NCBI GenBank assembly: GCA_964389655.1
Contig: CAYMED010000018.1
Span: 1-58,721, forward strand
DNA: 58,721 nucleotides
Source: an uncultured Candidatus Poseidoniales archaeon
GTDB lineage: Archaea > Thermoplasmatota > Poseidoniia > Poseidoniales > CAYMED01
Direction: 5' to 3'
The notes below the pieces were generated by a model. The model ran no database searches, was not told the DNA's origin, and saw only the letters and a program-made list of their open reading frames with translations. A program made the translations under genes and the position numbers. Shown in pieces: positions 11,830 through 25,419 of this stretch. Position 1 is the stretch's first letter, and each line of letters begins with the position of its first letter.

Positions 11830-12801
11830 ATGAGGGGTGAAATTTGTGCCCTGCTTGCTTGGGGCGGTGCATTTCAAGCAGATGGAATCTCTCAAATCTC
11901 AGGAATTGCCTCACGTCTAGGTGTAATCCGTGCAGATCCTTGGCTAGCTGATAAATGCAAATTGACAGATGCAACAGTTTGGATTGTCGAAGATGACCGG
12001 CGCCCTTGGAACCGACTTGAGCATGAACGATGGGTCGTCGATGCTGGCCCGGGTCGCCATCTTATCGTGTCAGTTGGCTCTATTGATTCGGGACTCGAAT
12101 CGTTGTTGCCTCCTCACATTAAATTTCTAAATCGCAGTCAATCTATGGCGCTCTTAGGTGAAGCTATAGTTGTTGGGTTCCGTCCCAATGACCCCTCAAC
12201 TCATCTCTCTTCAGAAGCGGTGATTGGCCAACAGAAACCGAAGAGTACTGTTTTTTCAACAAAAGGCGGGAGTGATCGAAATTTTGACACGCCGCTCTCG
12301 CTGAAACCGCTTGTTGACATAGACCAGTTACTTGCTTCTATGGGACACGGTAACGTAACTCCAAAACCTTGTCTTCTGATAGCGCGTGCTTGGAGGGTGA
12401 GGGGTACCCTTCAGGGCCCGATATCTGTCGAAGATATTGATGGCTTGCTTCTCGATTCAGGTCCCAGCCGCCCCCTATTGGTCATCGACACCTCATCCCT
12501 CCTAGAATGGATTCCAAAACTTGACCGTTTATCCATCTCTAATTTGCGGGGGGAAATGGAGTTGAGAGCTGAACTTCCCAATTTCTTCGATGACCGCCGC
12601 ACTCACGATGACAGACTTGAGGATGGAATCCGGGCACGTGTTTTGCGGTGGTGGAGGTTTGATTCCGATTCAGCACGCCTTGATCCGATAGATGCTCTTG
12701 TACCTGCGTGGGTGGTTGATGTCCCAAATAAGGGGTTGAATGTGATTAATGGTCTCGATGGGCGTAGATTTCCTAGCATCCTCAGCTCAGGACTTCACTG
12801 A
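11830..12801 (+). CDS. Hypothetical protein
   Basis: 323-aa ORF filling the gap after rpl30e; no KH motifs, so not NusA. Confidence 0.6.
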   Translation: MRGEICALLAWGGAFQADGISQISGIASRLGVIRADPWLADKCKLTDATVWIVEDDRRPWNRLEHERWVVDAGPGRHLIVSVGSIDSGLESLLPPHIKFLNRSQSMALLGEAIVVGFRPNDPSTHLSSEAVIGQQKPKSTVFSTKGGSDRNFDTPLSLKPLVDIDQLLASMGHGNVTPKPCLLIARAWRVRGTLQGPISVEDIDGLLLDSGPSRPLLVIDTSSLLEWIPKLDRLSISNLRGEMELRAELPNFFDDRRTHDDRLEDGIRARVLRWWRFDSDSARLDPIDALVPAWVVDVPNKGLNVINGLDGRRFPSILSSGLH

Positions 12802-13945
12802 GTCGGTCTGCTTCTGCAGCACGGCGGAGTTCCAATGCCACTCGCCTGCCACTTGACATTGGACGCCGCCAAAGTGAATTTCCATATGGGTGTCCCCAAT
12901 TCATGTGGGCATTTGTCCCACCGCCTACCCGGGGTGCGACATCATAAATCACAAAATTCATGTCCTGATCAACACATGTCTGCAGACAGAACGGACCGAT
13001 TATCCCATTTTCATATATTTTAGCAGATATGTCTATGAATTTTTCTCCAAGATCAAATGCTCGTTCTAGAAGTGATTCACGTAACGTGGCAATATCATGT
13101 CCTACAACCGTCATCTCCGGTAATTTCTGGTGTTCGGATAGTGCAAGTTGCTGCGCTGCTGGCAGCCGAACATGCCCATCCAGGCTTGATTCAAATCGCC
13201 AATCAACTCCGAGTAACTCTAGTCTTGGCCCATCGTCATTTAGGGGGCTATGGAAGAAATCAAGATTGAATACGGGTCCTATGATGTACTTCTCCATGCG
13301 AGCATGTGCAAGGTCATCTTCTGTAATTATCCCGTTTGCGATCATGCTCTCGGACTTCTCATAATATTCATCGGCAGTGCTACAAGTGAAAAATCCTCTT
13401 TCCAGTGGCTTCTGTGCATGGTGTAACTTGACAATTGTTAGGTCTTCAATATCGCCGGGGTCATTTATTTTTGGAGGGGTCGGTAGCCCTCCTTTTTCGA
13501 GCAAATCGTAGTAGTCCCCTGCTTCTCCTCGGTCCTCAATACGTAACATTGGTCTAGAACCAAATATAGGTATTCGAAAATCATCCTCTATGGAGTGTAG
13601 GGGTAAGTAACTGGTGAATGAACGATTAGGGATGAAAATCACGTTCCTGCGGCGCATTTGCTCTTGAAAATCATTCGCTAAAATGTCGGAAAAGGAATTT
13701 ACTACCACTGTTTTATCGACCATCCCTCGGTGAACACGTCCTGAACCCGATCGCATTGAGGCAAAATAGTGCGAATAGGTTCTTTCCCTTCCGCGTTGTG
13801 CATATGCAACAGTTGGAAAACCCTCTTCGATGGCCCCATCACATATGTCGAGTGCCGAATGACTTGCTATGGTTCCAACACGCAACTTGAGGCGGTCATA
13901 GCGCGCTAGAATGTCTCGGATATCTTCTGAATCCATCATTTTCAT
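12782..13945 (-). CDS. purP: PurP-family ATP-grasp enzyme (FAICAR synthetase-like)
   Basis: GTIASHSALDI, PNRSF, IIGPFCLQT, DVAPRVGGGTN, MSSGRRVALE; exact start Met uncertain (13936-13945). Confidence 0.9.
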   Translation of the reverse strand: MKMMDSEDIRDILARYDRLKLRVGTIASHSALDICDGAIEEGFPTVAYAQRGRERTYSHYFASMRSGSGRVHRGMVDKTVVVNSFSDILANDFQEQMRRRNVIFIPNRSFTSYLPLHSIEDDFRIPIFGSRPMLRIEDRGEAGDYYDLLEKGGLPTPPKINDPGDIEDLTIVKLHHAQKPLERGFFTCSTADEYYEKSESMIANGIITEDDLAHARMEKYIIGPVFNLDFFHSPLNDDGPRLELLGVDWRFESSLDGHVRLPAAQQLALSEHQKLPEMTVVGHDIATLRESLLERAFDLGEKFIDISAKIYENGIIGPFCLQTCVDQDMNFVIYDVAPRVGGGTNAHMNWGHPYGNSLWRRPMSSGRRVALELRRAAEADRLSEVLS

Positions 13946-13949
13946 TCCT

Positions 13950-14822
13950 CTAGTCCTGATGGCGTTGCAAGGCAAGTAATTCTTCAGTATCTACAGTTTC
14001 ACCAGACATGAGGCGTTCCATGATTTCATCCACTTCACGACGCTCTTGTTTTCTGACCTCGTCACTTGCTTCATGTTCATCTCGATGGTCAATCACGCGA
14101 ATCATGTCCTGAATCGAGTGGAGAGACCTGATACTCATGACATATGCACGATGATTTCTATCCGCTTCTCTTTTGGCAGTCAATAGTCGACGCTGTGCAT
14201 CATCGGCTTCGGCGCGTAATTTGTCCACTTCAGCATGGATTCGCAGCATCAAATCATGAGCCGATTGGGCCAAATCAGCAGCCTCAGTGACTTTTTGATG
14301 TGCGATTTCTTGCAAATCCATGGCTGCGCGAAGGCTTTCCCTAGCACCTCCAAGTTCGGTGTTTGAATTCTCTTCCCTACTTCTTTCTCGCAGCCGACGT
14401 GACAATTCTTGGATTCGTTCCATCACACGTCGTTCATTTTTTCCAGTATGTAGACCGCGCTCAAATTCTCGTTCAAGCCGTTCTAATTCGCGCTTCATAT
14501 GGTGCACACTTTCTTTTCGCTCACCGACCTCAACGCCTTGTTTTCGGAGATCATCAATATTCGTTTTAGCCTCCCGAACTTTTTCATTGCACTCTGCTCT
14601 TGCTTCCTTTGCAGTGCGGACTTTATCATTCTCTCCATCACGTATGTCTCTCTGATTACGGGCTTCTTGCAAAAGTTCAGCCACTTGTGCGTTGAACTCG
14701 TTTCGAACACCCATGTGCGATTTTACTTGGCCATTGAATTCATCACGCCGCTCGCGATAATCAGTTGCCTTACGATTGGCCATACCACGTCGATCTTCCA
14801 AGAACTTGGCCAGTGAATCCAT
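13950..14822 (-). CDS. Archaeal coiled-coil protein (COG1340-like), paralog 1
   Basis: Long charged heptad helices with RDEFN/RNEFN/RDGEN repeats; C-terminus EIMERLMSGETVDTEELLALQ matches the COG1340 tail. Confidence 0.8.
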   Translation of the reverse strand: MDSLAKFLEDRRGMANRKATDYRERRDEFNGQVKSHMGVRNEFNAQVAELLQEARNQRDIRDGENDKVRTAKEARAECNEKVREAKTNIDDLRKQGVEVGERKESVHHMKRELERLEREFERGLHTGKNERRVMERIQELSRRLRERSREENSNTELGGARESLRAAMDLQEIAHQKVTEAADLAQSAHDLMLRIHAEVDKLRAEADDAQRRLLTAKREADRNHRAYVMSIRSLHSIQDMIRVIDHRDEHEASDEVRKQERREVDEIMERLMSGETVDTEELLALQRHQD

Positions 14823-14871
14823 GGTGTGCGACCCCTACTGCTGAATAACCAAAAATCGAGTGGCAGGCCTC

Positions 14872-14878
14872 TATTTAA
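14872..14878 (-). promoter_or_regulatory. Putative archaeal TATA box (TTAAATA) for the coiled-coil/purP unit
   Basis: TTAAATA on the minus strand ~50 nt upstream of ATG 14822, in a divergent intergenic region. Confidence 0.35.
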
Positions 14879-14952
14879 TGTCCCCTACGGGCAATGATGT
14901 CTCTTTACCACCTGCGTCAGCAAGCAAGGGTTATCCGTTCCCCCCCTAGTGC

Positions 14953-15648
14953 GTGGCTGATTACATGCTTCGTTCATCGATTCCCGGTCTTGATCGCGTA
15001 CTTGGCGCTGAGCCTAGCCCACCCTATATCACCCTCGTTACTGGCCCCCCCGGCGCAATGAAATCTACTCTATGTCTTACCGCAATTGGTAACCATCTTC
15101 GGCAAACTGGGCGGTTTGGGCTGTATTGCACAGTGGAGGAGTCTGTTGAGAGTTTACTCAGATCAACAGAATCACTTGGCATGGTTCTTCCTTCTAATAT
15201 GCAAATTACTGATTTTACTGAATTGCGCAATGACAATGCTGATATGGATTATCTCAAATTTACACAACGTATGGTTGAGCATTTTAAATCAGAACAAGGT
15301 GAGAACTTCACCACATTTGTTCTCGACTCTCTAGGTGCAATATACTCGCTTACTGATGTCAATTCAGATATGCGCAAGCGGATGTTTGCTTTCTTTGCCT
15401 TTCTTCGCCGGATGAACCTAAACACAATGATCATCACAGAGAGACATATTGGGGATCGCGCTGAATTAAAAGGAAATGAAGGGTTTCTCGCGGATGGGAT
15501 CTTGTCGATGGGAATCGACCGAAGAGGTGGCCGCTTAGTTCGCACTCTGCAGGTCGAGAAAATGCGACATATAGCGCATTCAATGGACAAAATGTCAATT
15601 GAACCATCCCCTCAAGGATTGACTGTAATGGGTCCAATTTTCGATTGA
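14953..15648 (+). CDS. KaiC/RAD55-like RecA-superfamily ATPase (single domain)
   Basis: SIPGLD, Walker A GPPGAMKS, TVEES, Walker B FVLDS, FLADGIL, VEKMR. Confidence 0.9.
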   Translation: MADYMLRSSIPGLDRVLGAEPSPPYITLVTGPPGAMKSTLCLTAIGNHLRQTGRFGLYCTVEESVESLLRSTESLGMVLPSNMQITDFTELRNDNADMDYLKFTQRMVEHFKSEQGENFTTFVLDSLGAIYSLTDVNSDMRKRMFAFFAFLRRMNLNTMIITERHIGDRAELKGNEGFLADGILSMGIDRRGGRLVRTLQVEKMRHIAHSMDKMSIEPSPQGLTVMGPIFD

Positions 15649-16460
15649 GAAGGGAATTTATGAACCCACCACCAAGCAGGGGCGGAAATAGCCAACACAG
15701 CAAATAACCACGCGGTGACTGTGCCTTGAAATAGCCCTAGGTATGGATATGTCCACATTACGAAAACAGCGTATGCGGCTACTGAGGAGGATCCTAATAT
15801 CATGGGCCCTATTGCACCTATTGGAACAGCCTGATGCTGACTGATTGAAAGACTCACCATTGTTGTAAGAAATATGGCAGGGAATATTGAGATAATACCC
15901 GCAGTTATTGGGTATCCCATGCTCCCAACCCAGACACAGCAGGAGATGGCAATACCTGCTATACTACCTCGTGCCAAAAGAACTCGTAACTTCACAGTGT
16001 TTGTGCCAATTGGTGAGGGATGTGAATTCTTGCTTGAGACTAACCCTGTGAATACCAACGCAAATGGACCAGTGAGTGCTACTTCCATCTCGTTCAGCAT
16101 TTCAAATGCGAAAGCATGGAGGATCCACACCACACATATGGCGCCAAGGATCCATGCTGAAAGACTCACTGAAATTGCTCTTATGAGATTTGATTTTCCG
16201 TTTCTCGTTGTCTGAAGTGCCACGTGTTTCCATACAAGAAGAAATATCGCATTCACTAATATCCCAGCAGGTATTGCAGCCATCGCCCTTTGAAATACAG
16301 GACCTCCTGATATGAGGTATAAACCGACTGCTGCTGGAATGATTGTTGTAGGTACAGTCCCAAGGATCCCTCCTCTTCGCCCCCCAAAACGCTCAATGGC
16401 TACAGTAATACCTATGGCGGCTAATGCCGCAGTTAGCCCGCTTACAATGATCAAGTTCAT
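15612..16460 (-). CDS. Polytopic membrane protein with an internal duplication (DUF3147-like)
   Basis: About 8 TM segments; GGILGTVPTT and AGIISIFPAI are two related halves. Confidence 0.7.
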   Translation of the reverse strand: MNLIIVSGLTAALAAIGITVAIERFGGRRGGILGTVPTTIIPAAVGLYLISGGPVFQRAMAAIPAGILVNAIFLLVWKHVALQTTRNGKSNLIRAISVSLSAWILGAICVVWILHAFAFEMLNEMEVALTGPFALVFTGLVSSKNSHPSPIGTNTVKLRVLLARGSIAGIAISCCVWVGSMGYPITAGIISIFPAIFLTTMVSLSISQHQAVPIGAIGPMILGSSSVAAYAVFVMWTYPYLGLFQGTVTAWLFAVLAISAPAWWWVHKFPSQSKIGPITVNP

Positions 16461-16801
16461 GCAGCCTCTCCAAAGAGGCGACTTATCCGCTCTGCAGCAT
16501 CAAGAGCGCACAATCGGATCTCTCCTATGTTTGACTTGGAGGCGCATAAGATTGTAAGTGTAGAGGAGATCCCTACTCGGGCACAGACAATTGCTCCATC
16601 TTTTCCCCTCAGTACAATGAGAATGGGCGGATCCGAAGCAGAAGGGTCACCGAGGATTTCATGGGATGTTGCAGCAATCCCTTCTACCTCTTCGGGGGGG
16701 AACTCCCCAAAAATATTCCTAATCAGCCCTTCTTGGTCTGTGATGAGGGTCGCTATGATCCCATCAACAGCGGCAAGGTCTTGTAGAAGCCGCTCAATCA
16801 C
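16457..16801 (-). CDS. Roadblock/LC7 (MglB-like) domain protein
   Basis: LQDLAAVDGIIATLITDQEGL...EGIAA...LTILC...NIGEIR; probable GTG start at 16801, right after the GNAT stop. Confidence 0.8.
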   Translation of the reverse strand: MIERLLQDLAAVDGIIATLITDQEGLIRNIFGEFPPEEVEGIAATSHEILGDPSASDPPILIVLRGKDGAIVCARVGISSTLTILCASKSNIGEIRLCALDAAERISRLFGEAA

Positions 16802-16802
16802 G

Positions 16803-17342
16803 TCACTGGCTATGGGATAAATCCCATGAATTATTCGGAAGAGATGTGCTGGGCTGGTGCATTTCGATTGGATCCTCTTTGATCTCACCTTCCATTAGCA
16901 ATCCATCTGAACGAGAATAATACCCGTGAAGTCGCCCAATGACCTCCATCCCTCGGCGGGCATAGAACTGTATCGCTTTAGAATTGTCATTGTGTACCTC
17001 TAATTGGAGCTTCGAAAATCCTGTCTCAAGTAGTTTCTCAGCCATTCGTTTCCATCCAGATGCACCTAGACCAATTCCCCTGTATTCCTCATTTATCGCG
17101 AAAACGACCAGCCTGGCTCGCGCTTTGTTAACTGGTGTAACCCAAAGCAACCCTAGCAGTTCTCCAGATAAACCATGCATCCAAAGACTTCCCGCATTAG
17201 ATGCTGCGGGAATTTTGCGAAGACTCCGCACTTCGTAGATTTCTCCTGTGCTTTGAGCAATTAGGCTCCGACAATTTTTGAGTGCGTTTTCATCGATCGT
17301 AGAAGGCAATGGGGAGGGGGTCCAGAGTAAGTTACTATGCAT
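16803..17342 (-). CDS. GNAT acetyltransferase (RimI-like)
   Basis: FAINEEYRGIGLG, LEVHNDNSKAIQFYARRG, GYY. Confidence 0.85.
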   Translation of the reverse strand: MHSNLLWTPSPLPSTIDENALKNCRSLIAQSTGEIYEVRSLRKIPAASNAGSLWMHGLSGELLGLLWVTPVNKARARLVVFAINEEYRGIGLGASGWKRMAEKLLETGFSKLQLEVHNDNSKAIQFYARRGMEVIGRLHGYYSRSDGLLMEGEIKEDPIEMHQPSTSLPNNSWDLSHSQ

Positions 17343-17344
17343 AC

Positions 17345-18361
17345 TTATCTTTCCAAATCAGAATCCCTTCTCCCTGAATTTCCCTCAGCACGGCCCACTC
17401 TCCCCCTCCCGCGCAATGCACCCGTTGATCGCCTGCGTGGTGGGGGCGCTGGTGTACTTCTTTTTGCAGGAGACAGGGTCTCAGATTTTCCAGTTGGCAT
17501 TCGTTTAGCGTTAACCAATTTCGTTAATTCCTCAAAATCTAAAGTCTTACCAGCAGCCATTCGTTCTTGCAGTGCATCTAATTCTCTGTCATTCCGGCGT
17601 GAATATTGATGAGTCTTCCCTGTTGTACGGTCAAGGATTCGCAAATATGCTTTAAGCCGGCCAATTTCTCTTCTGAGTGCCTTCCCATCTTTATGCATCG
17701 TGTTGATCTCGCCTTTCATTTGGTCGATTTTATGGTTTAGTGATCGGACACCTTTCCAACTGACATCATCCTTTTGGAGTATTTCACTACTCTCGATTTT
17801 AAGTGCCTCTTCATTCTCAATCTCTTCAGTCAGGACAGATATTCGACTTCTCGCATCACGTATCACTTGAAACAACCTTACAATTTCTGAGTGAGCTCGA
17901 TCTCCCACTTCTTTGTGTCTTCGTTCAGCCTTGAGCCGCAACAAATCACTGAGTATGCCAATTTCATCCTTGAGAGAAACCGGCTCATTATCTCCTTGCC
18001 TACACAAGACATCTTCAAGCATCTGTATCCGCTCATCCAAACGTGGTATCGGTAAGGGGACAAGCGCATTAACGCGATCACGAACTTTTTTTGCTCCTCC
18101 TAATTGCGCACGCGCTAATCTGATTTCCTTTCGCATTTGGCCCAGTTCTGCACTCGATGGATCAGTGTTACGCAAAGTAGTTCGTGCTTCTTTCGCCCTA
18201 TTGATCGTTTTTCTTCGTTCCTGCTCTCTTTCACGACGGTGCGTACCAAGGCTTGCGTTCTGCTTTTCAAGATCGGATAACTTTGCTTCTATTGTGCCTC
18301 GACCCTGATCGCGTAAATCACCGAAAAGGTCACTTTTGCCTTTTTCTTGACCCAAATTCAC
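17345..18361 (-). CDS. Archaeal coiled-coil protein (COG1340-like), paralog 2, with a basic Pro-rich tail
   Basis: RDRVN; C-terminal ALQERMAAGKTLDFEELTKL resembles the paralog 1 tail. Confidence 0.75.
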   Translation of the reverse strand: MNLGQEKGKSDLFGDLRDQGRGTIEAKLSDLEKQNASLGTHRREREQERRKTINRAKEARTTLRNTDPSSAELGQMRKEIRLARAQLGGAKKVRDRVNALVPLPIPRLDERIQMLEDVLCRQGDNEPVSLKDEIGILSDLLRLKAERRHKEVGDRAHSEIVRLFQVIRDARSRISVLTEEIENEEALKIESSEILQKDDVSWKGVRSLNHKIDQMKGEINTMHKDGKALRREIGRLKAYLRILDRTTGKTHQYSRRNDRELDALQERMAAGKTLDFEELTKLVNAKRMPTGKSETLSPAKRSTPAPPPRRRSTGALRGRGRVGRAEGNSGRRDSDLER

Positions 18362-19128
18362 TCCTCCTCGGATACCAACATCTCTTCGACAATTCCTGTA
18401 AATTCTCTTATCCCTAAAAAGATCTCATTTTCATCATTTAGTCCCTGTTCAAGGGCGGAGGTCCAATATTCTAATGCATCTGGGCTGTTTCTTCGAATGG
18501 CTAGTAGTCGTGCATGTAGTTGCCTATTTCTCTCCAATTCAGCAGTCAGATTCCTCATTTCCTGATGGAATGGCTCAGATGACTTGGCTAGGGCAACCAT
18601 TTGTTCATGCAATGCCTGGGCTGTTTCATGCGCATTTCTGAGTTTTTCATGCTCATTACTCAGTGTTTTGTGTTCAGGGTGTTTCTTGTTTCGCTCATTA
18701 ACCCACTCCTCGTGACGATGGATAAGGTCGCGCATTTCTTTGAACAAAGTTCGCTCACGGTCTCGTGAAAGACTCTTTGTCTCAATTGTTGATTCAATAC
18801 GGACCAATTCTTTCTCAAGCCGATCTCTTGCCCAACGCGGATCTGGGTGCACAATTCCACCTTCTTCGGCTCTTTCCCTCACCTCTCGAATGGTAGCAGC
18901 AGCAGTTCTCGCTTCAGCATGGTTTGCGTTTCTTTCATTTTTCAGCCGAGCAACTTCAGAATTGATTCGGTCTCTTTGCACAGCAGCAGCTTCATGACGG
19001 GGAACTAGAACACCCAAGCGGTCTTCAGTTTGCACTAATCTCTCGTCCAAAGTTGCGAGGCTAGAGCGATGACGCTCGATGATGAGCCTAATCAGCCCTT
19101 CGGCCTCTGCGATCTCAATTGCTGCCAA
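18358..19128 (-). CDS. Archaeal coiled-coil protein (COG1340-like), paralog 3
   Basis: QRDRINSEVARLKNERN; hinge IETKSLSRDRERTLFKEMRDL; 4-nt overlap with the next gene. Confidence 0.75.
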   Translation of the reverse strand: MAAIEIAEAEGLIRLIIERHRSSLATLDERLVQTEDRLGVLVPRHEAAAVQRDRINSEVARLKNERNANHAEARTAAATIREVRERAEEGGIVHPDPRWARDRLEKELVRIESTIETKSLSRDRERTLFKEMRDLIHRHEEWVNERNKKHPEHKTLSNEHEKLRNAHETAQALHEQMVALAKSSEPFHQEMRNLTAELERNRQLHARLLAIRRNSPDALEYWTSALEQGLNDENEIFLGIREFTGIVEEMLVSEEE

Positions 19129-19220
19129 GTAATCCGGCGCCCTCCATAATATGTGGTAATGCTTGCGGCGACCTTGTTTGAGCCGATGGCGTCAAAGAGG
19201 CCTAAAGAGAGCGAGGGCTA

Positions 19221-21791
19221 GTGCTGGCAAAAGTTTCGCAGTGCGAGCCACAACGCCGCGCCCGCTCACCCTATCTCATATGTGGGTTTATTTTCGCCTC
19301 AGTCGCCTTGCTTCCACTTCCCGTCTCGGCAGATTATCCGTTCGATCTCCCTCTCTCTGAAATTATAGTCTCTGGTCAGAATGGTATTGGCCCGGGGGAA
19401 GTAAATGTCAGTGTGAGGGTTGACCACCTTTCGGGTTCGCAGTTGTGGGTTAATTTGCACGCACGCCTAGAAAATTCAGAGGGGGTAGTCTTCTGGACTC
19501 AATCCTCAAACCTTACGGTCCTCCAAAATTCAAATCTCCGTGTCAATTTATCACTTGGAGTCGTCCCAACAGGCATTCACCAATTCAGGCTTTCTCTATC
19601 GAATCATTCTGACCCGAATGCTTCTTCCATTGGTGATTCCATTAGTCGAGTCGTTCCAATTCACAGGTTGTTTCCAGCAGATGCAAAAATTCTCGATATT
19701 GACCGCTGGAAAATTGAATGGAGGGATCATGCCAATGGGTCTACTTCTCCAAATGCAACACCGACTGAAGGGGAGATTGGTATTATTGCACCAAGATTGA
19801 TCAACCTTGGTGAAGTTTCCACTAACATCTCTTGGAATGTGTCTCTGTTCAATGATGATCGTTGGTGGAATGACTCTGGAATTCTCTATTTGAGTGGCGG
19901 GGAAGCAAATCTGACATCGTCACTTCAGTCAGATGAGTTAATTGAAGGGCCCCTGATTGCAAACGTATCTATTGCTGGGTCTGCCGTCCCGAATGGTTCA
20001 GCAAATTTACTTCGTTCATGGGTTGTATCACCCCGTCCTAGCCCTATTCTCAATCTTACTGCAAATTGGGTGAACCTCTCAGAGGACGAACCCAAAATGT
20101 TCGTTGAAATTGAGAATTCAGGTGCTGTTAGCTGGAATGGGACGCTGTCATGTGGAACCCCTGATTTCGAATCATTTAGGGGTTTTATCTCCATCGCTGA
20201 CAATTCGATCTTCAATATCTCTGTTGAGAGTTATGGTCGAGCAGGGCGCTGGACTTGTTCTATCGAATCGAACATTTCCATTTCTTCATCTTCCGTCCTC
20301 AATACAACCCTCGATCTCCAACGTCCTTCAGCAATATGGGAATTGATGAGTGAACCTAGAATTAGTGATGGCTCGCGTCATGCTGGTGATTCACTTGCGG
20401 TCAGGGCTATTGTACGAAACAATGGTACACTTGCTGGCTCCATCCATCTTGAGATCAAAGTGGGGCTAACTGTTGTCTCGTCAGGACCCTCCCTTCGATT
20501 GGGAGCAAATGAAGAAGGTCTTATTGAGTCATTCTTCGTAATAGCAGGGGAAGGTTCTCAATCGTTCACTTGGGCTCTTGTGGCATCTGATGGTTGGATC
20601 AATGGTTCTCGAACAGGAGCAATTGCATATGTGGCTGAACCTCTTCAGAAGTTATCACTTTTGTCAGTTGATGTGAGTCGAACTGCCCAAGGTGGTTCTT
20701 ATGTCCAAATTTCGCTTAATCTTTCCGAGGGTGCTAGCCGAAGTATTGACCTCAAAGTTGGATTATTGGATGGAAGTTATCTCGTTAATGAAGCGCTTCT
20801 TCTATCCCCTGGTCATTCATTACTCATCTATGACCTTACCGCGCCATCTTCTAAAACAACATTGCGCGTATTTGTCTCTCCTGTTGGCTGGGGTGCATCC
20901 AATTTGAGTAATTCATCTCATTTGTCTACAGATGCCGTGCTTACAGCGATTGGTTCTGAACTCGTGATGAGTGCTGGATTAAGTGATACCACAGCGATTG
21001 CATCATCGGGCCAAGTCCTAGGGCTTTCGGTTACCTTAAGGAATGATGGAAGCGCTCCATCCCCTTCGGGCCGTCTTGTGATTACGCGAGATGTAGACGG
21101 GTTTCGATTAGCCGAAGTTGAGACCCCGTTATTAGATCCGGGCGCTTCGAAAATAATCGAATTTAATTTGGCACCATGGCCGGATAATCAGGGACACGTC
21201 GCAACAGTTCGCTGGACCGTCGATGAAACTGTTGTAGCAAGCTCTTCAGTTGCATTTATTTCTGCGCAATCCAGCGATGCAGAAGTTTCGGGAATGGTTC
21301 AAGGAAGCGCTATTGGAGCATTAGGTGCGATCGTCTTGTTGGCCGTGATCCGTATTGCAATGGCTGCAAGGTCGTCGAATTCGGATTCGCTGATTCTTTC
21401 TTCAGAAAGAAAAATGACCAGTGATGAACGCATAGAAATATCCTGTCCCGAATGTCCTCAAAGGCTTCGTGTACCTAGTGATTATTCAGGCCGTGTTCGT
21501 TGTGCTGCATGCGGCGAAGTATTTCCTGTGGAACTCAATGTGACTACGCTTTCTGAGGTGAATGAGGATGATGTTGATAATACGGATGATCTCCAAGATG
21601 AATCCCCTCCTGATATGTTGCGAGAAGATATCTCATCCTCTAAAGATACTTTGGAATCAGTATCCAGTAAGCATGATGTTGTCCGTTGTCCTACTTGCCA
21701 GCAAGCCCTTCGTGTTCCGATTGATCGTCGGCCAGTGACTGCGCGCTGTCCCAAGTGTGAAACCCGATTTCAGGCAACATACGAGCGGTGA
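19221..21791 (+). CDS. Surface protein: signal peptide, CARDB/Ig-like repeats, TM helix, two cytoplasmic zinc ribbons
   Basis: Repeated x(R/E/I)NxG CARDB-like strands; TM near the C-terminus; CPEC..CAAC and CPTC..CPKC motifs. Confidence 0.8.
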   Translation: MLAKVSQCEPQRRARSPYLICGFIFASVALLPLPVSADYPFDLPLSEIIVSGQNGIGPGEVNVSVRVDHLSGSQLWVNLHARLENSEGVVFWTQSSNLTVLQNSNLRVNLSLGVVPTGIHQFRLSLSNHSDPNASSIGDSISRVVPIHRLFPADAKILDIDRWKIEWRDHANGSTSPNATPTEGEIGIIAPRLINLGEVSTNISWNVSLFNDDRWWNDSGILYLSGGEANLTSSLQSDELIEGPLIANVSIAGSAVPNGSANLLRSWVVSPRPSPILNLTANWVNLSEDEPKMFVEIENSGAVSWNGTLSCGTPDFESFRGFISIADNSIFNISVESYGRAGRWTCSIESNISISSSSVLNTTLDLQRPSAIWELMSEPRISDGSRHAGDSLAVRAIVRNNGTLAGSIHLEIKVGLTVVSSGPSLRLGANEEGLIESFFVIAGEGSQSFTWALVASDGWINGSRTGAIAYVAEPLQKLSLLSVDVSRTAQGGSYVQISLNLSEGASRSIDLKVGLLDGSYLVNEALLLSPGHSLLIYDLTAPSSKTTLRVFVSPVGWGASNLSNSSHLSTDAVLTAIGSELVMSAGLSDTTAIASSGQVLGLSVTLRNDGSAPSPSGRLVITRDVDGFRLAEVETPLLDPGASKIIEFNLAPWPDNQGHVATVRWTVDETVVASSSVAFISAQSSDAEVSGMVQGSAIGALGAIVLLAVIRIAMAARSSNSDSLILSSERKMTSDERIEISCPECPQRLRVPSDYSGRVRCAACGEVFPVELNVTTLSEVNEDDVDNTDDLQDESPPDMLREDISSSKDTLESVSSKHDVVRCPTCQQALRVPIDRRPVTARCPKCETRFQATYER

Positions 21792-21836
21792 CTTGATGGA
21801 TGTGAATCGGCTGCAATAATTTTGAGGAGGGAAAGG

Positions 21837-23318
21837 ATGAGCAAAGCGCCAGATTTGGATTCGGGGGATGTTGAAGTCCCTCCACTCGATGAAGTCCTCA
21901 ATAAGTCTGATAATTTGGATGACAGTTTAGAGTCAGCCATTGATGCTGAGGTATCCCAGCAGGCTGCTGAAGATGATCGGACATTATTGGCTAAAATTCT
22001 TGATTTAGGGGAACACGCTGCGCGCATCGAGAATACCCTTGCAGGACTTGAATCTCGCCTCCATACGTCAGGCCTTCGCACAAGTCAGTGGCTTCCAGTT
22101 CTAATCCTCCTCGTTGAGATTGTGCTTTTGTCCACTAGAGGTGGTGATCCACCTTGGTGGTCCGATGGACTAGGGTCTGTAATAGGGATGCAACTGTCAT
22201 CAGCTATGCTGGGTTTGGGAGTAGTTTTTCTGATCGCACTTATTGTACTTGACCTACTCGCAGCCTCTCGCCGTTTTCTCGGTTTGGTTGCACTTGGCGA
22301 TCTGAGTCGCCGTCGTGATGGTGGCCTTTCCCCAAGGGATGATATTTCATGGCCTGCCTGCTGGGCAAATGCCCTTTTGGATACAAAACATCGAGCATCA
22401 TTAGCCGCATTAACTCTGATTGCATCTGTATGGCATGCAACCGCATTATCGGGTGGCAGTGCTTATGGGCAAAGTGGCGTCTCCATTGCGTTTGTACTTT
22501 GTTTCATGATGCTCCGTCTCAGTCTTGATATTGGGCGAGCCTCACCCATGTGGTCGACTCAAGCCACCCTAGGTCTTGTTCAATTACACAGGCCTGTATC
22601 CCATCCACTTACCACATACACACCCAATCTTGTAGCTTTAGAAAATACATGCGATCCATTTACTGCTCGCAGTTTTGCGACTTGGCGAAAACGAATGCAG
22701 AAAGCCGGTCTAAAGAATGATGAGAAAATTGAAACAATTCTCGATGCTATCGTCGATCATGTTCTTGGCCAAGATGATGACGAAGACCTTTCGGCGTGTG
22801 TTAAGTCAGTAGCCGGCAAGGATGTGAATCCATTTAGCGCAGATGATATGACCGAGCGGATGTTTGAAATCCTCGTGGATGAGATTAGGATAAACCATCC
22901 TGGTCTTTTTGCTATACGCCGTAATCACTCGGGTGAAATGAGTGCGGATATGCGCATTGGTGACCGTGGCCTAGCCCACATATTTGCAAGAGTATCTAAG
23001 GGTGCAGTTCCAAAAGGTGAGTTAGAAGTTTCAGCGAGTGGTTCATTGTCTACGACAATTTCACTTGGTGATTGCAGCAAGGAAACTTGGTTGTGGATTG
23101 ACATCGATTCGATAGAGTCAAGGCAAATGCATACAACGCTTCGGCTGACAGATGCCAAAGGAAATCCCCGAGTTGTGCAAAGTTTGCGCGCCACGCCCTC
23201 GTCTGCCTTTACGCGTGTGACTCGCCGTCGTCTTTCGGCACTTCTTACTGGTTCTGCACTGGCAATTCCGTTGATCCTCGGTTTTGCAGCATTTTCAGTT
23301 TGGATCCGGACGCTGTAA
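21837..23318 (+). CDS. Hypothetical membrane protein (acidic N-terminus, ~4 TM, soluble domain, C-terminal TM)
   Basis: Long ORF co-oriented with its neighbours; hydrophobic segments; start MSKAP inferred. Confidence 0.7.
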   Translation: MSKAPDLDSGDVEVPPLDEVLNKSDNLDDSLESAIDAEVSQQAAEDDRTLLAKILDLGEHAARIENTLAGLESRLHTSGLRTSQWLPVLILLVEIVLLSTRGGDPPWWSDGLGSVIGMQLSSAMLGLGVVFLIALIVLDLLAASRRFLGLVALGDLSRRRDGGLSPRDDISWPACWANALLDTKHRASLAALTLIASVWHATALSGGSAYGQSGVSIAFVLCFMMLRLSLDIGRASPMWSTQATLGLVQLHRPVSHPLTTYTPNLVALENTCDPFTARSFATWRKRMQKAGLKNDEKIETILDAIVDHVLGQDDDEDLSACVKSVAGKDVNPFSADDMTERMFEILVDEIRINHPGLFAIRRNHSGEMSADMRIGDRGLAHIFARVSKGAVPKGELEVSASGSLSTTISLGDCSKETWLWIDIDSIESRQMHTTLRLTDAKGNPRVVQSLRATPSSAFTRVTRRRLSALLTGSALAIPLILGFAAFSVWIRTL

Positions 23319-23383
23319 TTTCGCGCGTGGTTGATTAATGGATTGGCAGGATTCAAACGGAAGAGGTTTGTCGCGCAGAATCG

Positions 23384-24397
23384 ATGTCAGGCGATGACTT
23401 GAGTGACCCGAGTGCTTTACGAGAGCAACTCACTAACATGGAAGCTCGTATTTCCCGCATACGTGAGGTGAGGGACGCTCACAATTTGAGTGCTAGAAGG
23501 GCAGCGGAGCAGCGAGATTCAGTTCAGGGTCAAAACAAGGATTTGCGTGAGCGAATCAACGAGCGCATCGAGGTGCGGGATGAGATTCGTGCGCGAATAC
23601 AGGCGCATAAAAACCGCCGAGATGCGATTCAAGAACAAGTGAGGGCACTTATTCAACAATCACGGAAAGGCCGTTCAAATCAGCGTGATGCGAAATCAGT
23701 TCGGGTTCAATTCAATGATGCTAGGGCAGAAGTTGATCGTCGGACCAAGCGAATTGAAACAAGTGGCGCACTCACCCTTGAAGATGAGAAAAAAGAACTC
23801 GAAATAATTCGAAGATTGATGGTGAAAATATCCGACTTAGAGCCATTGGTTAAGGAGCAGGAACGGCTTGATGTTGATTTGGATGATATTGAAGGATCAA
23901 TACAAGAACTCAGAGCACGGGCAGATGAGGAGCACCAGTCAATGGTCGAAGCGGTTGATGAGGTCAAGATTGTCTCCAAAGAATTGGATGAGATGTTTTC
24001 TGAACGCTCATTTCTCAAAGCAGAGGGGGATAGGCATCATGCCTCCTTTGTTTCATCCCGTGAGAAAGCCGATGAGGTCCACCAGAAAATCAAAGATATC
24101 ATCGATGAAGTTACCAAGGTCAAGGATCAATTACAAGCACTCCGTTCTGAAGCTCGCGGATGGATGGACCAGCATAATGCAAGCGTCCGAGAAGAAATGC
24201 AGGATGGATCCGATTCAGATGAAATTGCGGATGAACTTGCAATGCTCTTGGAATCAACAGGGCAATTGTCTTTGGGTGGCGTCCTTTCTTCTGATCCGGG
24301 AAGGCGCTCAGATCCTCCAATCCGTGAAGTTACTAAGAAAAATAAGAAAAGCAGAATCGAGCCACAAAGAAGACGTCGAATGTCTGGTGGTTCTTGA
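23384..24397 (+). CDS. Archaeal coiled-coil protein (COG1340-like), paralog 4
   Basis: VRDAHN..QRDSVQ..RDEIR..RDAIQ repeats; hinge RIETSGALTLEDEKKELEIIRRL; basic tail. Confidence 0.75.
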   Translation: MSGDDLSDPSALREQLTNMEARISRIREVRDAHNLSARRAAEQRDSVQGQNKDLRERINERIEVRDEIRARIQAHKNRRDAIQEQVRALIQQSRKGRSNQRDAKSVRVQFNDARAEVDRRTKRIETSGALTLEDEKKELEIIRRLMVKISDLEPLVKEQERLDVDLDDIEGSIQELRARADEEHQSMVEAVDEVKIVSKELDEMFSERSFLKAEGDRHHASFVSSREKADEVHQKIKDIIDEVTKVKDQLQALRSEARGWMDQHNASVREEMQDGSDSDEIADELAMLLESTGQLSLGGVLSSDPGRRSDPPIREVTKKNKKSRIEPQRRRRMSGGS

Positions 24398-25419
24398 ACA
24401 TGCAAGCGATCATTATGGCAGGAGGGCGAGGGGAGCGCCTTCGCCCGCTCACAGATGACCGTCCTAAGCCCCTTGTTGAGGTGTTTGACCGACCTGTCAT
24501 CGACCACGTTGCAGCAATGCTTTCTCATTGTGGCGTCAGTAGCGTCGCTTTGACAACTCATTATGGGGCTGAAATGCTGATTGAGCATGCGAGAGGATGG
24601 AGCCATAGATTTGGGTTTGATGAGGTCAAAATTAGTAGGGAAAAAACACCCATGGGTACAGCGGGAGGAGTAGCCATGTTACACGAGTGGATAGAAGGGC
24701 CAGTGATCATTGCAAGTGGGGACAATTTATGCTCATTCGATATATCTCCCCTTGTTGAAGCCCATAATCGAAGTGGCGCTTCAACTTCAATGGCACTTTG
24801 GCACGTGTTAGATACGCGAGAATTTGGCATTGTTGGTCTTTCGAAAATGTCTGGGGAGTTGGTTGATGAATCGCTTGAGCAAGGTTATATTTCCAAATTT
24901 GCAGAAAAACCTGCTCCTGAAGAGTCCTTCTCAAATTTGATTAATGCAGGGATTTACCTTTTGGAGCCAGATGTTGTTGCAGCGATACCGGAGGGCGAGA
25001 AATACGATTTCTCCCGGGACCTATTTCCTCTTCTTCTTCAGAAAGGTGTTCCGATGTGGGCCATGTCTCTTCCAGGGATCTGGTATGATGTGGGGCGTCC
25101 GAGTGAGTTGATTCAGTCACAAGTTGATGTCGCGCTTGGTAATGCTCAATTGCCCACACCAGATGCATTAGATGGTGTATTTAGTGAGGGGAATTGGATC
25201 TCGAATACTGCCCGAGTTGAAGGTGACGCCATCTTAGAAGGAGCCGTTTTGCATGCTAAATCGTTCATTGGTGCTGGTGCGAAGGTCACGCGGAGCGTTG
25301 TCATGCGGGGTGCTCATGTCCAAGCAAACGCCGTGTTGGAAGATGCATTAATCGTACCCGAGCATGCACTCCTTGAGGGACACACATTTTCTAGAGGTGT
25401 GTGTCATGATCGCAGTTAA
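24394..25419 (+). CDS. NDP-sugar pyrophosphorylase (mannose-1-phosphate guanylyltransferase-like)
   Basis: AIIMAGGRGERLRPLT..PKPL, MGTAG, FAEKP, INAGIY, WYDVG, C-terminal hexapeptide repeats. Confidence 0.9.
   Translation: MNMQAIIMAGGRGERLRPLTDDRPKPLVEVFDRPVIDHVAAMLSHCGVSSVALTTHYGAEMLIEHARGWSHRFGFDEVKISREKTPMGTAGGVAMLHEWIEGPVIIASGDNLCSFDISPLVEAHNRSGASTSMALWHVLDTREFGIVGLSKMSGELVDESLEQGYISKFAEKPAPEESFSNLINAGIYLLEPDVVAAIPEGEKYDFSRDLFPLLLQKGVPMWAMSLPGIWYDVGRPSELIQSQVDVALGNAQLPTPDALDGVFSEGNWISNTARVEGDAILEGAVLHAKSFIGAGAKVTRSVVMRGAHVQANAVLEDALIVPEHALLEGHTFSRGVCHDRS

Follow-up and report, generated by a model that had tools for sequence, protein, structure and literature searches.

Four clustered DUF7121 (COG1340) paralogs and a surface glycoprotein in a Poseidoniales archaeon: a candidate membrane-proximal scaffold

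Introduction

A 2005 survey described COG1340 as an archaeal group that is highly conserved and has no known function (PMC1322226). In the window analyzed here, a stretch of 58,721 nt from an uncultured Candidatus Poseidoniales archaeon, four coiled-coil genes of this type (CC1 to CC4) lie together with genes for a surface protein, a KaiC-like ATPase, a Roadblock/LC7-type protein and a GNAT acetyltransferase. The locus raises the question of whether these genes form one system and, if so, which of the neighbors belong to it. An earlier note on this DNA had envisioned a coiled-coil filament or scaffold, tethered to the membrane and regulated by the ATPase, the Roadblock protein and acetylation.

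Results

The cluster (Table 1) adjoins an RNA polymerase/L30e operon and is arranged as a divergon. One arm consists of CC3-CC2, followed here by the GNAT, Roadblock and 8-TM genes; the other comprises the surface glycoprotein, a 498-aa membrane protein, CC4 and a sugar nucleotidyltransferase. Open reading frames were found where the earlier note had placed the four coiled-coil genes (at 13950, 17345, 18358 and 23384), and the tight head-to-tail packing that it described is real: the five genes of the first arm are joined by 4-nt overlaps (CC3/CC2, with junction sequence GAGGAGGAGTGA, and Roadblock/8-TM) or by gaps of 2 nt (CC2/GNAT) and 1 nt (GNAT/Roadblock, if the Roadblock gene starts with the GTG at 16801). 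The longest Roadblock ORF reaches 16888 and would overlap the GNAT gene by 86 nt; the GTG at 16801 was taken as the likely start, from alignment and DNA, because it agrees with the N-termini of relatives. CC4 and the NTP-transferase gene overlap by 4 nt, and the KaiC-like gene does converge on the 8-TM gene, with an overlap of 37 nt. The window's version of the locus carries the KaiC, Roadblock and 8-TM genes; the DtxR regulator and nucleotidyltransferase fusion described below are missing from it.

Table 1. Features of the coiled-coil cluster, in window coordinates
Feature	Position	Strand	Size or match
CC1, DUF7121/COG1340 protein, predicted helical hairpin, acidic C-terminal cap	13950..14822	-	290 aa; Pfam PF23435 7.8e-23
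KaiC-like single-domain ATPase, divergent from CC1	14953..15648	+	Pfam PF06745 7e-27
8-TM membrane protein, weak DUF3147-like, final gene of five-gene operon	15612..16460	-	
Roadblock/LC7-type small protein	16457..16801	-	115 aa; family profile vs solved Roadblock proteins
GNAT acetyltransferase, RimI/Ard1 type	16803..17342	-	Pfam PF00583 4e-13
CC2, most diverged paralog, shared cap then basic RG-rich tail	17345..18361	-	338 aa
CC3, short paralog, opening gene of operon	18358..19128	-	256 aa; CC1 HMM 3e-9
Divergent intergenic region between CC3 and surface-protein operons	19129..19220		
Surface glycoprotein, TM ~700-722, cytoplasmic double zinc-ribbon tail	19221..21791	+	
Membrane protein	21822..23318	+	498 aa; no Pfam/NCBIfam match
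CC4, phylum-wide second DUF7121 type, basic tail	23384..24397	+	337 aa; hhalign to CC1 98.8%
Sugar-nucleotide NTP-transferase with LbH domain	24394..25419	+	Pfam PF00483 2e-37

Direct similarity among the four coiled-coil proteins is low (24% over 254 aa for CC1-CC4), and CC1 and CC2 align only in the C-terminal cap that the earlier note had seen in two of them (24 aa, 50%; conserved SG-x-(T/L) in CC1). Their kinship emerged from family HMMs built from orthologues only and run over the complete set of 5993 ORFs in the genome. The CC1 HMM found CC4 (7.5e-12) and CC3 (3e-9) and no other match at E<=10; the CC3 and CC4 HMMs matched the other paralogs at about 1e-5, and the CC2 HMM matched only itself. 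Profile-profile comparison by hhalign gave probabilities of 98.8% for CC1-CC4, 97.9% for CC1-CC3 and 96.6% for CC3-CC4, reversed-profile controls scoring 3% or less. CC2 reached 96-97% with CC4 over ~280 collinear columns and 68-83% with CC1 but only ~6% with CC3, and is therefore tied to the family via CC4. By these profile criteria the postulated homology is confirmed: CC1-CC4 are true paralogs of Pfam DUF7121 (COG1340), and the relationship is specific, beyond coiled-coil bias. The RD..N repeats reported as common to all four fared less well, being enriched in CC4 (5 copies, P=0.002), marginal in CC1 (3, P=0.08) and unenriched in CC2 and CC3; R26, D27 and N30 are invariant among CC1 orthologues.

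Of 121 genomes taken from the whole phylum, 117 contain DUF7121, a pan-archaeal family, and source names confirm the JGI label "uncharacterized coiled-coil DUF342 family protein" (COG1340). CC1 resembles the family in score (81.8 bits, cut-off 29), in length (~290-300 aa) and in its hairpin; it is the canonical copy. The CC4 HMM was the best scorer for 22 of 22 second copies drawn from genomes throughout the phylum. CC4 belongs to an old, phylum-wide second paralog type; CC2 and CC3 are Poseidoniales-specific. The locus departs from the rest of the family in that most genomes have one to three dispersed copies whereas here four are clustered, in that Pfam misses three of them (CC4, 15.8 bits; CC2 and CC3, no hit) and in that two have gained basic tails. 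These tails, on CC2 and CC4, are basic order-wide (12-15 K/R among the final 45 residues). In a sister family, CC2 is fused to an N-terminal Cid1-type nucleotidyltransferase (PF22600 1e-29, PAP_assoc); PF22600 was not found anywhere in the present genome, and the fusion is therefore a single-lineage event.

The AF2 model of CC1 is confident (pLDDT 86) and predicts a long antiparallel helical hairpin whose arms are helices H2-97 and H155-272 and whose tip (106-153) is a small pair of helices. Loop 122-127 (GLHTGK), which had been read as a central hinge, sits at that tip. Such long two-helix rods are shared with SMC arms, chemoreceptor cytoplasmic domains, EnvC, PspA/Vipp1 and HP0958 (VIA Z 10-13 over 120-250 residues), but the window proteins lack an ATPase head, a hinge, HAMP and a signalling tip. 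Foldseek ranked SMC and MCP segments high, with no match at E<0.001; the fold is generic, and structure searches returned no relative above the helical background. Snf7 and PspA signals were looked for in Pfam and were absent.

The surface glycoprotein consists of a signal peptide, a sequon-rich, Ig/CARDB-like ectodomain of ~690 aa, a transmembrane segment and two CxxC...CxxC ribbons separated by an acidic linker. The earlier description of a CARDB-TM-double zinc ribbon protein was thus right for the membrane segment and the ribbons; Pfam detects CARDB in 12 of 19 orthologues and not in the window protein. The ribbon tail is its most conserved section: the cysteines are invariant in the 19 orthologues, and mean column identity over the whole protein is only 30%. 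The 498-aa protein, for which Pfam and NCBIfam gave no match, has an acidic N-terminus, ~4 TMs, a ~230-aa soluble domain and one more TM at the C-terminus. An iterated HMM found orthologues in 16 of 20 relatives' loci, and a paralog lies on contig C11.

In every one of the 20 relatives examined, which span 14 genera and two other families and are not independent samples, all four coiled-coil genes and the CARDB/TM/double-zinc-ribbon protein occur together. The linkage foreseen in the earlier note thus holds order-wide for a core of the four paralogs, the surface protein and the 498-aa protein. It does not extend to the whole cluster: of the 20, 13 have Roadblock near it, 10 have GNAT, 7 have KaiC and none has the 8-TM gene. 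Flanks are rearranged around the core: purP and KaiC are variably present, L034 and L038 have the KaiC-CC1-purP block in inverted orientation, and L048 has an insertion of three genes. Streamlined genomes (1.3-1.6 Mb) retain exactly the core. The CC4-NTP-transferase pair is also seen in sister-family loci and in a distant family (L074). A DtxR gene lies within the operon in 19 of the 20 loci; the divergent intergenic region of streamlined relatives contains the palindrome AAAGGTCAC-TAY-GTGACCTTG, of which that of the window has a single half-site, GCGACCTTG. Conserved synteny also spans clearly unrelated housekeeping genes (purP, PdxS, rpoA'', L30e), which makes linkage weak evidence when taken by itself.

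Outside the order, three further families have a CC4-type copy directly 3' of, and co-oriented with, a homologous CARDB/Ig protein of 754-1037 aa, at protein identities of 24-28%; in a fourth, a PKD/Ig protein occupies that position. Zinc ribbons are absent from these outside surface proteins, and docking through the tail therefore cannot be a general mechanism. Elsewhere in the phylum, no neighbor recurs beside the canonical copy.

The regulatory roles that had been assigned to the ATPase, the Roadblock protein and the acetyltransferase are not supported by the comparison in the form proposed. The ATPase (Pfam KaiC, 94.7 bits) shares the catalytic EE pair and Walker B Asp of archaeal single-domain KaiC-like proteins (PH0186, PH0284, ArlH-like) but falls under every NCBIfam subfamily cut-off, and its Walker A, kept in orthologues, is GPPG[AS]MK[ST] in place of GxxGxGK[ST], with M for G before Lys. 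Its gene is divergent from CC1 wherever present. No orthologue was found in five streamlined genomes retaining the core or in five others with Roadblock, the latter having only paralogs at 31% identity. The Roadblock protein, co-operonic with CC2 in its 13 loci, is genuine: the window sequence by itself misses the Pfam cut-off (18.9 against 23 bits), but a 10-sequence family profile gives full-length matches to the group that includes MglB, MglC, LAMTOR2 and archaeal Robl (7f8m 5.9e-11, 9jue 8e-8, MglC 1e-4). No Ras/MglA-type GTPase partner was found in this genome. The same five streamlined genomes yielded no Roadblock orthologue, and neither protein is therefore a core regulator. The GNAT may be a housekeeping enzyme, because it is the genome's best rimI-like locus (RimI/Ard1-type N-terminal acetyltransferase) and its nearest solved relative is Thermoplasma volcanium ARD1 (4pv6, 1e-10). 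The 8-TM gene gave no tblastn or HMM match in the 20 loci and was seen in this lineage only. Like the KaiC-like ATPase and GNAT genes, it is one of the neighbors that vary between lineages and lie outside the core machine.

Discussion

We tentatively favor the idea, at slightly under even odds (roughly 0.45), that the DUF7121 paralogs make up a membrane-proximal heteromeric scaffold coupled to the surface protein. The four would assemble into a rod or lattice on the cytoplasmic side of the membrane, anchored by the glycoprotein's invariant double zinc-ribbon tail, by the basic tails that CC2 and CC4 carry, or by both; these basic tails would lie opposite acidic stretches on the cytoplasmic side of both membrane proteins. 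One could envision such a scaffold linking the cell-surface protein with the cell interior, for envelope organization or as a transmembrane relay. In this lineage, Roadblock might provide an added docking platform.

The main rival is an RNA-linked role, which we consider doubtful. The hairpins would bind or organize RNA or RNP, possibly at the membrane, as is reported for the eukaryotic coiled-coil protein Bfr1. The basic RG tails of CC2 and CC4 would touch RNA, with the membrane genes as clients under shared regulation or as simple neighbors. The Cid1-type domain on the sister family's CC2 and the order-wide basic tails fit this picture, although the fusion is confined to one lineage and such tails are equally able to bind membranes or acidic proteins. 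The adjoining RNA polymerase/L30e operon fits as well, but the canonical copy elsewhere is not next to an RNAP operon, save for one L7Ae-family neighbor in L058. A further hint comes from the ESM Atlas, where, with DUF7121 excluded, the clusters nearest to CC1 (0.86-0.87) and CC4 (0.89-0.90) are eukaryotic, Bfr1 and PPI1-like, and share 176-193 language-model features with them; scores below 0.9 are leads only, in feature space, with neither alignment nor E-value. Both Bfr1 and the plant proton-pump-interactor PPI1 are coiled-coil proteins associated with membranes or the ER, and Bfr1 also binds mRNPs. Our literature search returned no paper linking the Bfr1/PPI1 families to archaea.

It is unlikely, in our view, that there is no joint system at all and that tandem or segmental duplicates, each doing the same housekeeping job as single-copy DUF7121, are kept near unrelated genes by low regional rearrangement. 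Such an origin would agree with the presence of purP, PdxS, the NTP-transferase and RNAP/ribosomal genes in the conserved block, with accessory genes that differ between lineages and with a canonical copy that stands alone elsewhere. However, the core persists through inversions and insertions that alter its flanks, its genes are joined by translational overlaps, an operator-like palindrome and a DtxR gene accompany it in relatives, and the pairing of a CC4-type copy with a CARDB protein survives at low identity in other families. Most improbable is the polarity, division or shape module of the earlier note, in which KaiC and Roadblock switch a coiled-coil filament that the GNAT acetylates. 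The Roadblock gene's place beside CC2 and the constant orientation of KaiC relative to CC1 speak for it; against it stand the core-keeping genomes in which neither orthologue was found, the Roadblock-bearing ones in which no KaiC orthologue was found, the failure to find a Ras-type GTPase in the genome, the resemblance of the GNAT to a general Ard1/RimI enzyme and the non-canonical Walker A.

Returning to the scaffold at the membrane, what is new in the present study is the recurrence of a CC4-type copy just downstream of a large CARDB surface protein in three families beyond the order.

Results

As contig C18, the window comes from a genome (2.1 Mb, 93% complete) that falls in another, third family of the Poseidoniales, for which the genomes compared include a single genus. 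Its four coiled-coil genes, CC1 to CC4, are confirmed to form one cluster. CC1 adjoins purP; CC3 and CC2 lie in a five-gene minus-strand operon, and CC4 in a plus-strand operon with the surface-protein gene, from which the CC3-led operon is separated by a divergent intergenic region of 92 bp (see table). The near-zero spacing that the earlier note had reported within the unit running from CC3 to the 8-TM gene held on re-measurement: the junctions are CC3/CC2, -4 nt; CC2/GNAT, +2; GNAT/Roadblock, +1 (presuming that Roadblock starts at the GTG at 16801, in line with the N-termini of relatives); and Roadblock/8-TM, -4. The CC4/NTP-transferase junction is likewise -4. The KaiC-like gene does converge on the operon, as had been claimed, and overlaps the 8-TM gene by 37 nt.

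Some features of the neighborhood deserve mention in their own right. The longest purP ORF shares 26 nt with the 3' end of CC1 on the same strand, which reflects either co-transcription or a later purP start. Downstream (3') of rpoA''-L30e, a 323-aa ORF lacking any Pfam or NCBIfam match occupies the usual place of NusA and is kept there in 14 of the 20 loci of relatives. In the 8-TM protein, a DUF3147-like 4-TM unit seems to have been duplicated internally (weak Pfam match, E 1e-3). For the 498-aa membrane protein, an AF2 model from 15 sequences reached a pLDDT of 52, too low for structure search; a paralog of this protein is encoded elsewhere in the genome (HMM E 1.5e-51).

Coordinates of the features discussed (window positions unless a contig, C, of the same genome or a locus, L, of another genome is named)
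Feature	Position	Strand	Context
323-aa ORF	11830-12801	+	3' of rpoA''-L30e
purP, longest ORF	12782-13975	-	adjoins CC1
purP/CC1 shared stretch	13950-13975	-	3' end of CC1
CC1	13950-14822	-	
KaiC-like ATPase (predicted)	14953-15648	+	
8-TM gene	15612-16460	-	five-gene minus-strand operon
Roadblock	16457-16801	-	five-gene minus-strand operon
GNAT	16803-17342	-	five-gene minus-strand operon
CC2	17345-18361	-	five-gene minus-strand operon
CC3	18358-19128	-	five-gene minus-strand operon
CC3 end motif	18358-18375	-	
Palindrome half-site	about 19165-19175		
Surface protein	19221-21791	+	plus-strand operon
498-aa membrane protein	21822-23318	+	plus-strand operon
CC4	23384-24397	+	plus-strand operon
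NTP-transferase	24394-25419	+	plus-strand operon
DtxR homologue	C9:66560-67249		outside the cluster
Paralog of 498-aa protein	C11:35840-37504		
KaiC paralog	C1:156060-156836		Met-type Walker A
CC2-nucleotidyltransferase fusion	L045:8476-10665		sister family
CC2-nucleotidyltransferase fusion	L046:3252-5369		sister family
CARDB surface protein	L071:2188-5091		outside the order, upstream of CC4-type copy
CARDB surface protein	L084:8435-11338		outside the order, upstream of CC4-type copy
CARDB surface protein	L087:3056-6166		outside the order, upstream of CC4-type copy
CARDB surface protein	L089:4780-7671		outside the order, upstream of CC4-type copy
CARDB surface protein	L088:8902-11163		outside the order, upstream of CC4-type copy

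Among the four paralogs, only CC1 clears the Pfam gathering threshold (29 bits) of DUF7121 (PF23435), with 81.8 bits over model positions 37-303 of 307; CC4 scores 15.8 bits, and CC2 and CC3 give no match to this model. Because pairwise similarity is weak, we built alignments from orthologues only (20 relatives). Against the 5993 stop-to-stop ORFs of the genome, the CC1 HMM retrieved CC4 (7.5e-12) and CC3 (3e-9), with no further match at E≤10; SMC and Rad50 went unmatched. The CC3 and CC4 HMMs each matched the other two at about 1e-5, and the CC2 HMM matched only itself. Profile-profile comparison by hhalign gave probabilities of 96-99% for CC1-CC3, CC1-CC4, CC3-CC4 and CC2-CC4; the CC2-CC4 alignment spans about 280 collinear columns. 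CC2 reached 68-83% with CC1 and about 6% with CC3, and a control with reversed profiles, which preserves composition and heptad periodicity, stayed at ≤3% throughout. The homology of the four genes, which the earlier note had put forward, is thus upheld: they are paralogs, with CC2 joined via CC4. Since CC2, CC3 and CC4 are tied to DUF7121 only by the family HMMs and hhalign, they are best described as diverged paralogs that fall outside Pfam's own rule of membership. The RD..N repeats proposed as a signature common to all four were rejected for CC2 and CC3. Homologues of CC1 near its length are only MGII orthologues, at ≤48% identity, with no informative names besides 'DUF342/DUF7121'; a search for longer or fused forms, rated as weak evidence, found none. 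The literature held nothing on DUF7121 by name, and a 2005 survey mentions COG1340 only as being of unknown function (PMC1322226).

Synteny was examined in 20 loci that represent 14 genera in two other families of the order. CC1, CC2, CC3, the surface protein and CC4 occur together in all 20, a count that, like those that follow, overstates independence, the relatives being kin. Linkage is thus conserved in relatives. Like the homology of the four proteins by HMM, this was a point on which the earlier note had staked its proposal, and neither outcome counts against it. The core persists through inversions and insertions that altered its flanks. The 498-aa protein is present in 16 loci and the 8-TM gene in none. 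The idea that KaiC, Roadblock and acetylation are core regulators is unsupported: Roadblock is found in 13 loci, GNAT in 10 and the KaiC orthologue in 7, and searches of five streamlined genomes that retain the core (91-97% complete) turned up no Roadblock, for which our profile A2 was used, and no KaiC orthologue. Five sister-family genomes with Roadblock have KaiC paralogs only, at 31% identity.

Downstream of the surface-protein gene, 19 of the 20 loci encode a 216-aa DtxR-type regulator (PF01325/PF02742). In the window, by contrast, no DtxR gene lies inside the cluster, the homologue being on another contig. The CC3/surface-protein intergenic region of the streamlined relatives L037, L039, L040, L042 and L043 carries a perfect palindrome, AAAGGTCAC-TAY-GTGACCTTG, and the DtxR gene of streamlined relatives with the palindrome is part of the operon; in the window, just one half-site is present. 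With a half-site only and the DtxR homologue on contig C9, a DtxR operator in the window is not convincing. The sister family also differs in CC2, which there measures 690-730 aa and bears a fused N-terminal nucleotidyltransferase of the Cid1/MTPAP type (PF22600 plus PAP_assoc) at the two loci tabulated and at four others; no Cid1-type nucleotidyltransferase was found anywhere in the window's genome.

An AF2 model of CC1 (19 orthologues, pLDDT 86) predicts that helix 155-272 packs antiparallel on helix 2-97, with a tip of two small helices (106-121 and 128-153) and a short cap helix at the C-terminal end. The central 'hinge' GLHTGK, noticed earlier in the sequence, falls at the loop of the two-helix tip. 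Invariant polar residues lie on helix 1 (R26, D27, N30, R40, R61, N65) and on helix 2 (H175, Q186, H189, D221, H224). Structure searches with this model (Foldseek, VIA-wide) returned generic helical hairpins with no stand-out match, and the CC1 profile found nothing below E 0.07 among PDB sequences. As to ESCRT-III/PspA/Vipp1, there is no Pfam signal for Snf7 or PspA_IM30, and the PspA, Vipp1 and Snf7 structures score Z of about 10-11 against CC1 among many unrelated helical hairpins. The tails differ between paralogs: those of CC2 and CC4 are basic order-wide (12-15 K/R among the last 45 residues), and the CC1 C-terminus is an acidic cap. Almost all CC3 orthologues of the order (L033-L052) terminate in GGEEE; since its codons (GGAGGAGGAG) resemble a GGAGG/Shine-Dalgarno site for the overlapping CC2 start, the conservation of this 'motif' may be that of an RNA signal.

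The surface protein combines a sequon-rich ectodomain, one TM segment and two zinc ribbons, whose eight cysteines (742/745/761/764 and 823/826/843/846) are invariant in a protein that is only 30% conserved as a whole. The ribbons contain two CxxC...CxxC motifs of the MJ0042 type (PF13717/PF13719) and score 24-26 bits, just under the Pfam cut-offs of 29-30. A CARDB domain (PF07705) is recognized in 12 of 19 orthologues, at 1.5e-9 in the best case, and the window protein has no match to it at E≤0.01. The Roadblock protein does not reach the PF03259 threshold (18.9 bits, E 1.3e-3; gathering threshold 23), and three orthologues give no match to this model; its assignment to Roadblock/LC7 was nonetheless vindicated by profile A2, which matches the solved structures 7f8m (5.9e-11, profile positions 13-117 of 119), 9jue (7.9e-8) and MglC (1e-4). 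A search of the 93%-complete genome with PF00071 for a partner GTPase of the Ras/MglA type gave no match. The GNAT (PF00583, 50 bits, above threshold) is the most RimI/Ard1-like gene of the genome, scoring 47.8 bits against TIGR01575 rimI (cut-off 86.4), with Thermoplasma ARD1 (4pv6, 1e-10) as best PDB match; it is plausibly a housekeeping enzyme. The KaiC-like protein (PF06745, 94.7 bits; cut-off 26.6) has the catalytic EE and Walker B, and its Walker A reads GPPG[AS]MK[ST], with Met for the canonical Gly before Lys in all seven orthologues. The same Met-type Walker A is seen in one KaiC paralog of the genome, and in a third paralog, encoded on C8, the motif takes the canonical form GCGKT.

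Of 121 genomes sampled across the phylum, 117 carry DUF7121, usually in 1-3 copies; Haloferax, Sulfolobus and Methanosarcina likewise have matches to the Pfam model. When 'second' copies were fetched from the phylum, the CC4 HMM was the best scorer for 22 of 22. These two observations identify CC1 as the canonical copy, with CC4 belonging to an old second paralog type; CC2 and CC3 arose within the order. No gene recurs next to the canonical copy in the 20 loci compared across the phylum. In three families outside the order (four genomes of one, a single genome of each of the others), the gene directly 5' of the CC4-type copy, in the same orientation, encodes a homologous CARDB/Ig protein of 754-1037 aa with a signal peptide and TM segments; in a fourth family a PKD/Ig protein stands in its place. 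Identity among the CARDB/Ig proteins is 24-64% along most of the sequence, except that the alignment of the 754-aa protein is confined to its C-terminal portion (22-29% identity across about 80 to 310 residues). Their CARDB domain is C-terminal, a long hydrophobic segment (about 38 aa) is present, and, unlike the Poseidoniales protein, they carry no zinc ribbons. The HMM of the Poseidoniales protein matches two of them (3.6e-7 and 1.5e-5). The pairing of the CC4-type gene with the NTP-transferase recurs in a distant family.

Discussion

The reading that best fits these data, which we hold tentatively and at a probability of roughly 0.45, is a membrane-proximal assembly in which the four rods would be coupled to the surface protein. 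Its main rival is an RNA-linked role of the cluster. The nucleotidyltransferase fused to CC2 in the sister family, the RG tails, and an ESM-Atlas lead in which eukaryotic Bfr1 and PPI1-like proteins are nearest to CC1 and CC4 all speak for such a role, which we consider possible but doubtful; the literature holds nothing tying Bfr1 or PPI1 to archaea. The cluster might also be explained by purely inherited synteny. This view stays viable because purP, PdxS and RNAP genes occupy the same conserved block, and we regard it as unlikely.

A more speculative proposal, to which we give long odds, is that DUF7121/COG1340 might correspond in archaea to the coiled-coil proteins Bfr1/PPI1 of eukaryotes, as a membrane-proximal scaffold tying mRNPs or translating ribosomes to the membrane. 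The expansion in Poseidoniales would then be a four-subunit machine for the surface glycoprotein, docked via the zinc-ribbon tail and coupled to RNA 3'-tailing in one lineage. If true, this would reconcile the membrane and RNA contexts.

DUF7121/COG1340 is among the most widely conserved archaeal proteins still without a function. Poseidoniales, among the most abundant planktonic archaea, are uncultured, so that their cell biology has to be approached mainly through gene context. The order-wide four-paralog cluster supplies concrete, testable partners for DUF7121, as does the pairing of a CARDB protein with a CC4-type gene in other Thermoplasmatota. By revealing KaiC, Roadblock, GNAT, the 8-TM gene and the DtxR regulator to be dispensable neighbors, the window narrows the core to four rods and two membrane proteins.
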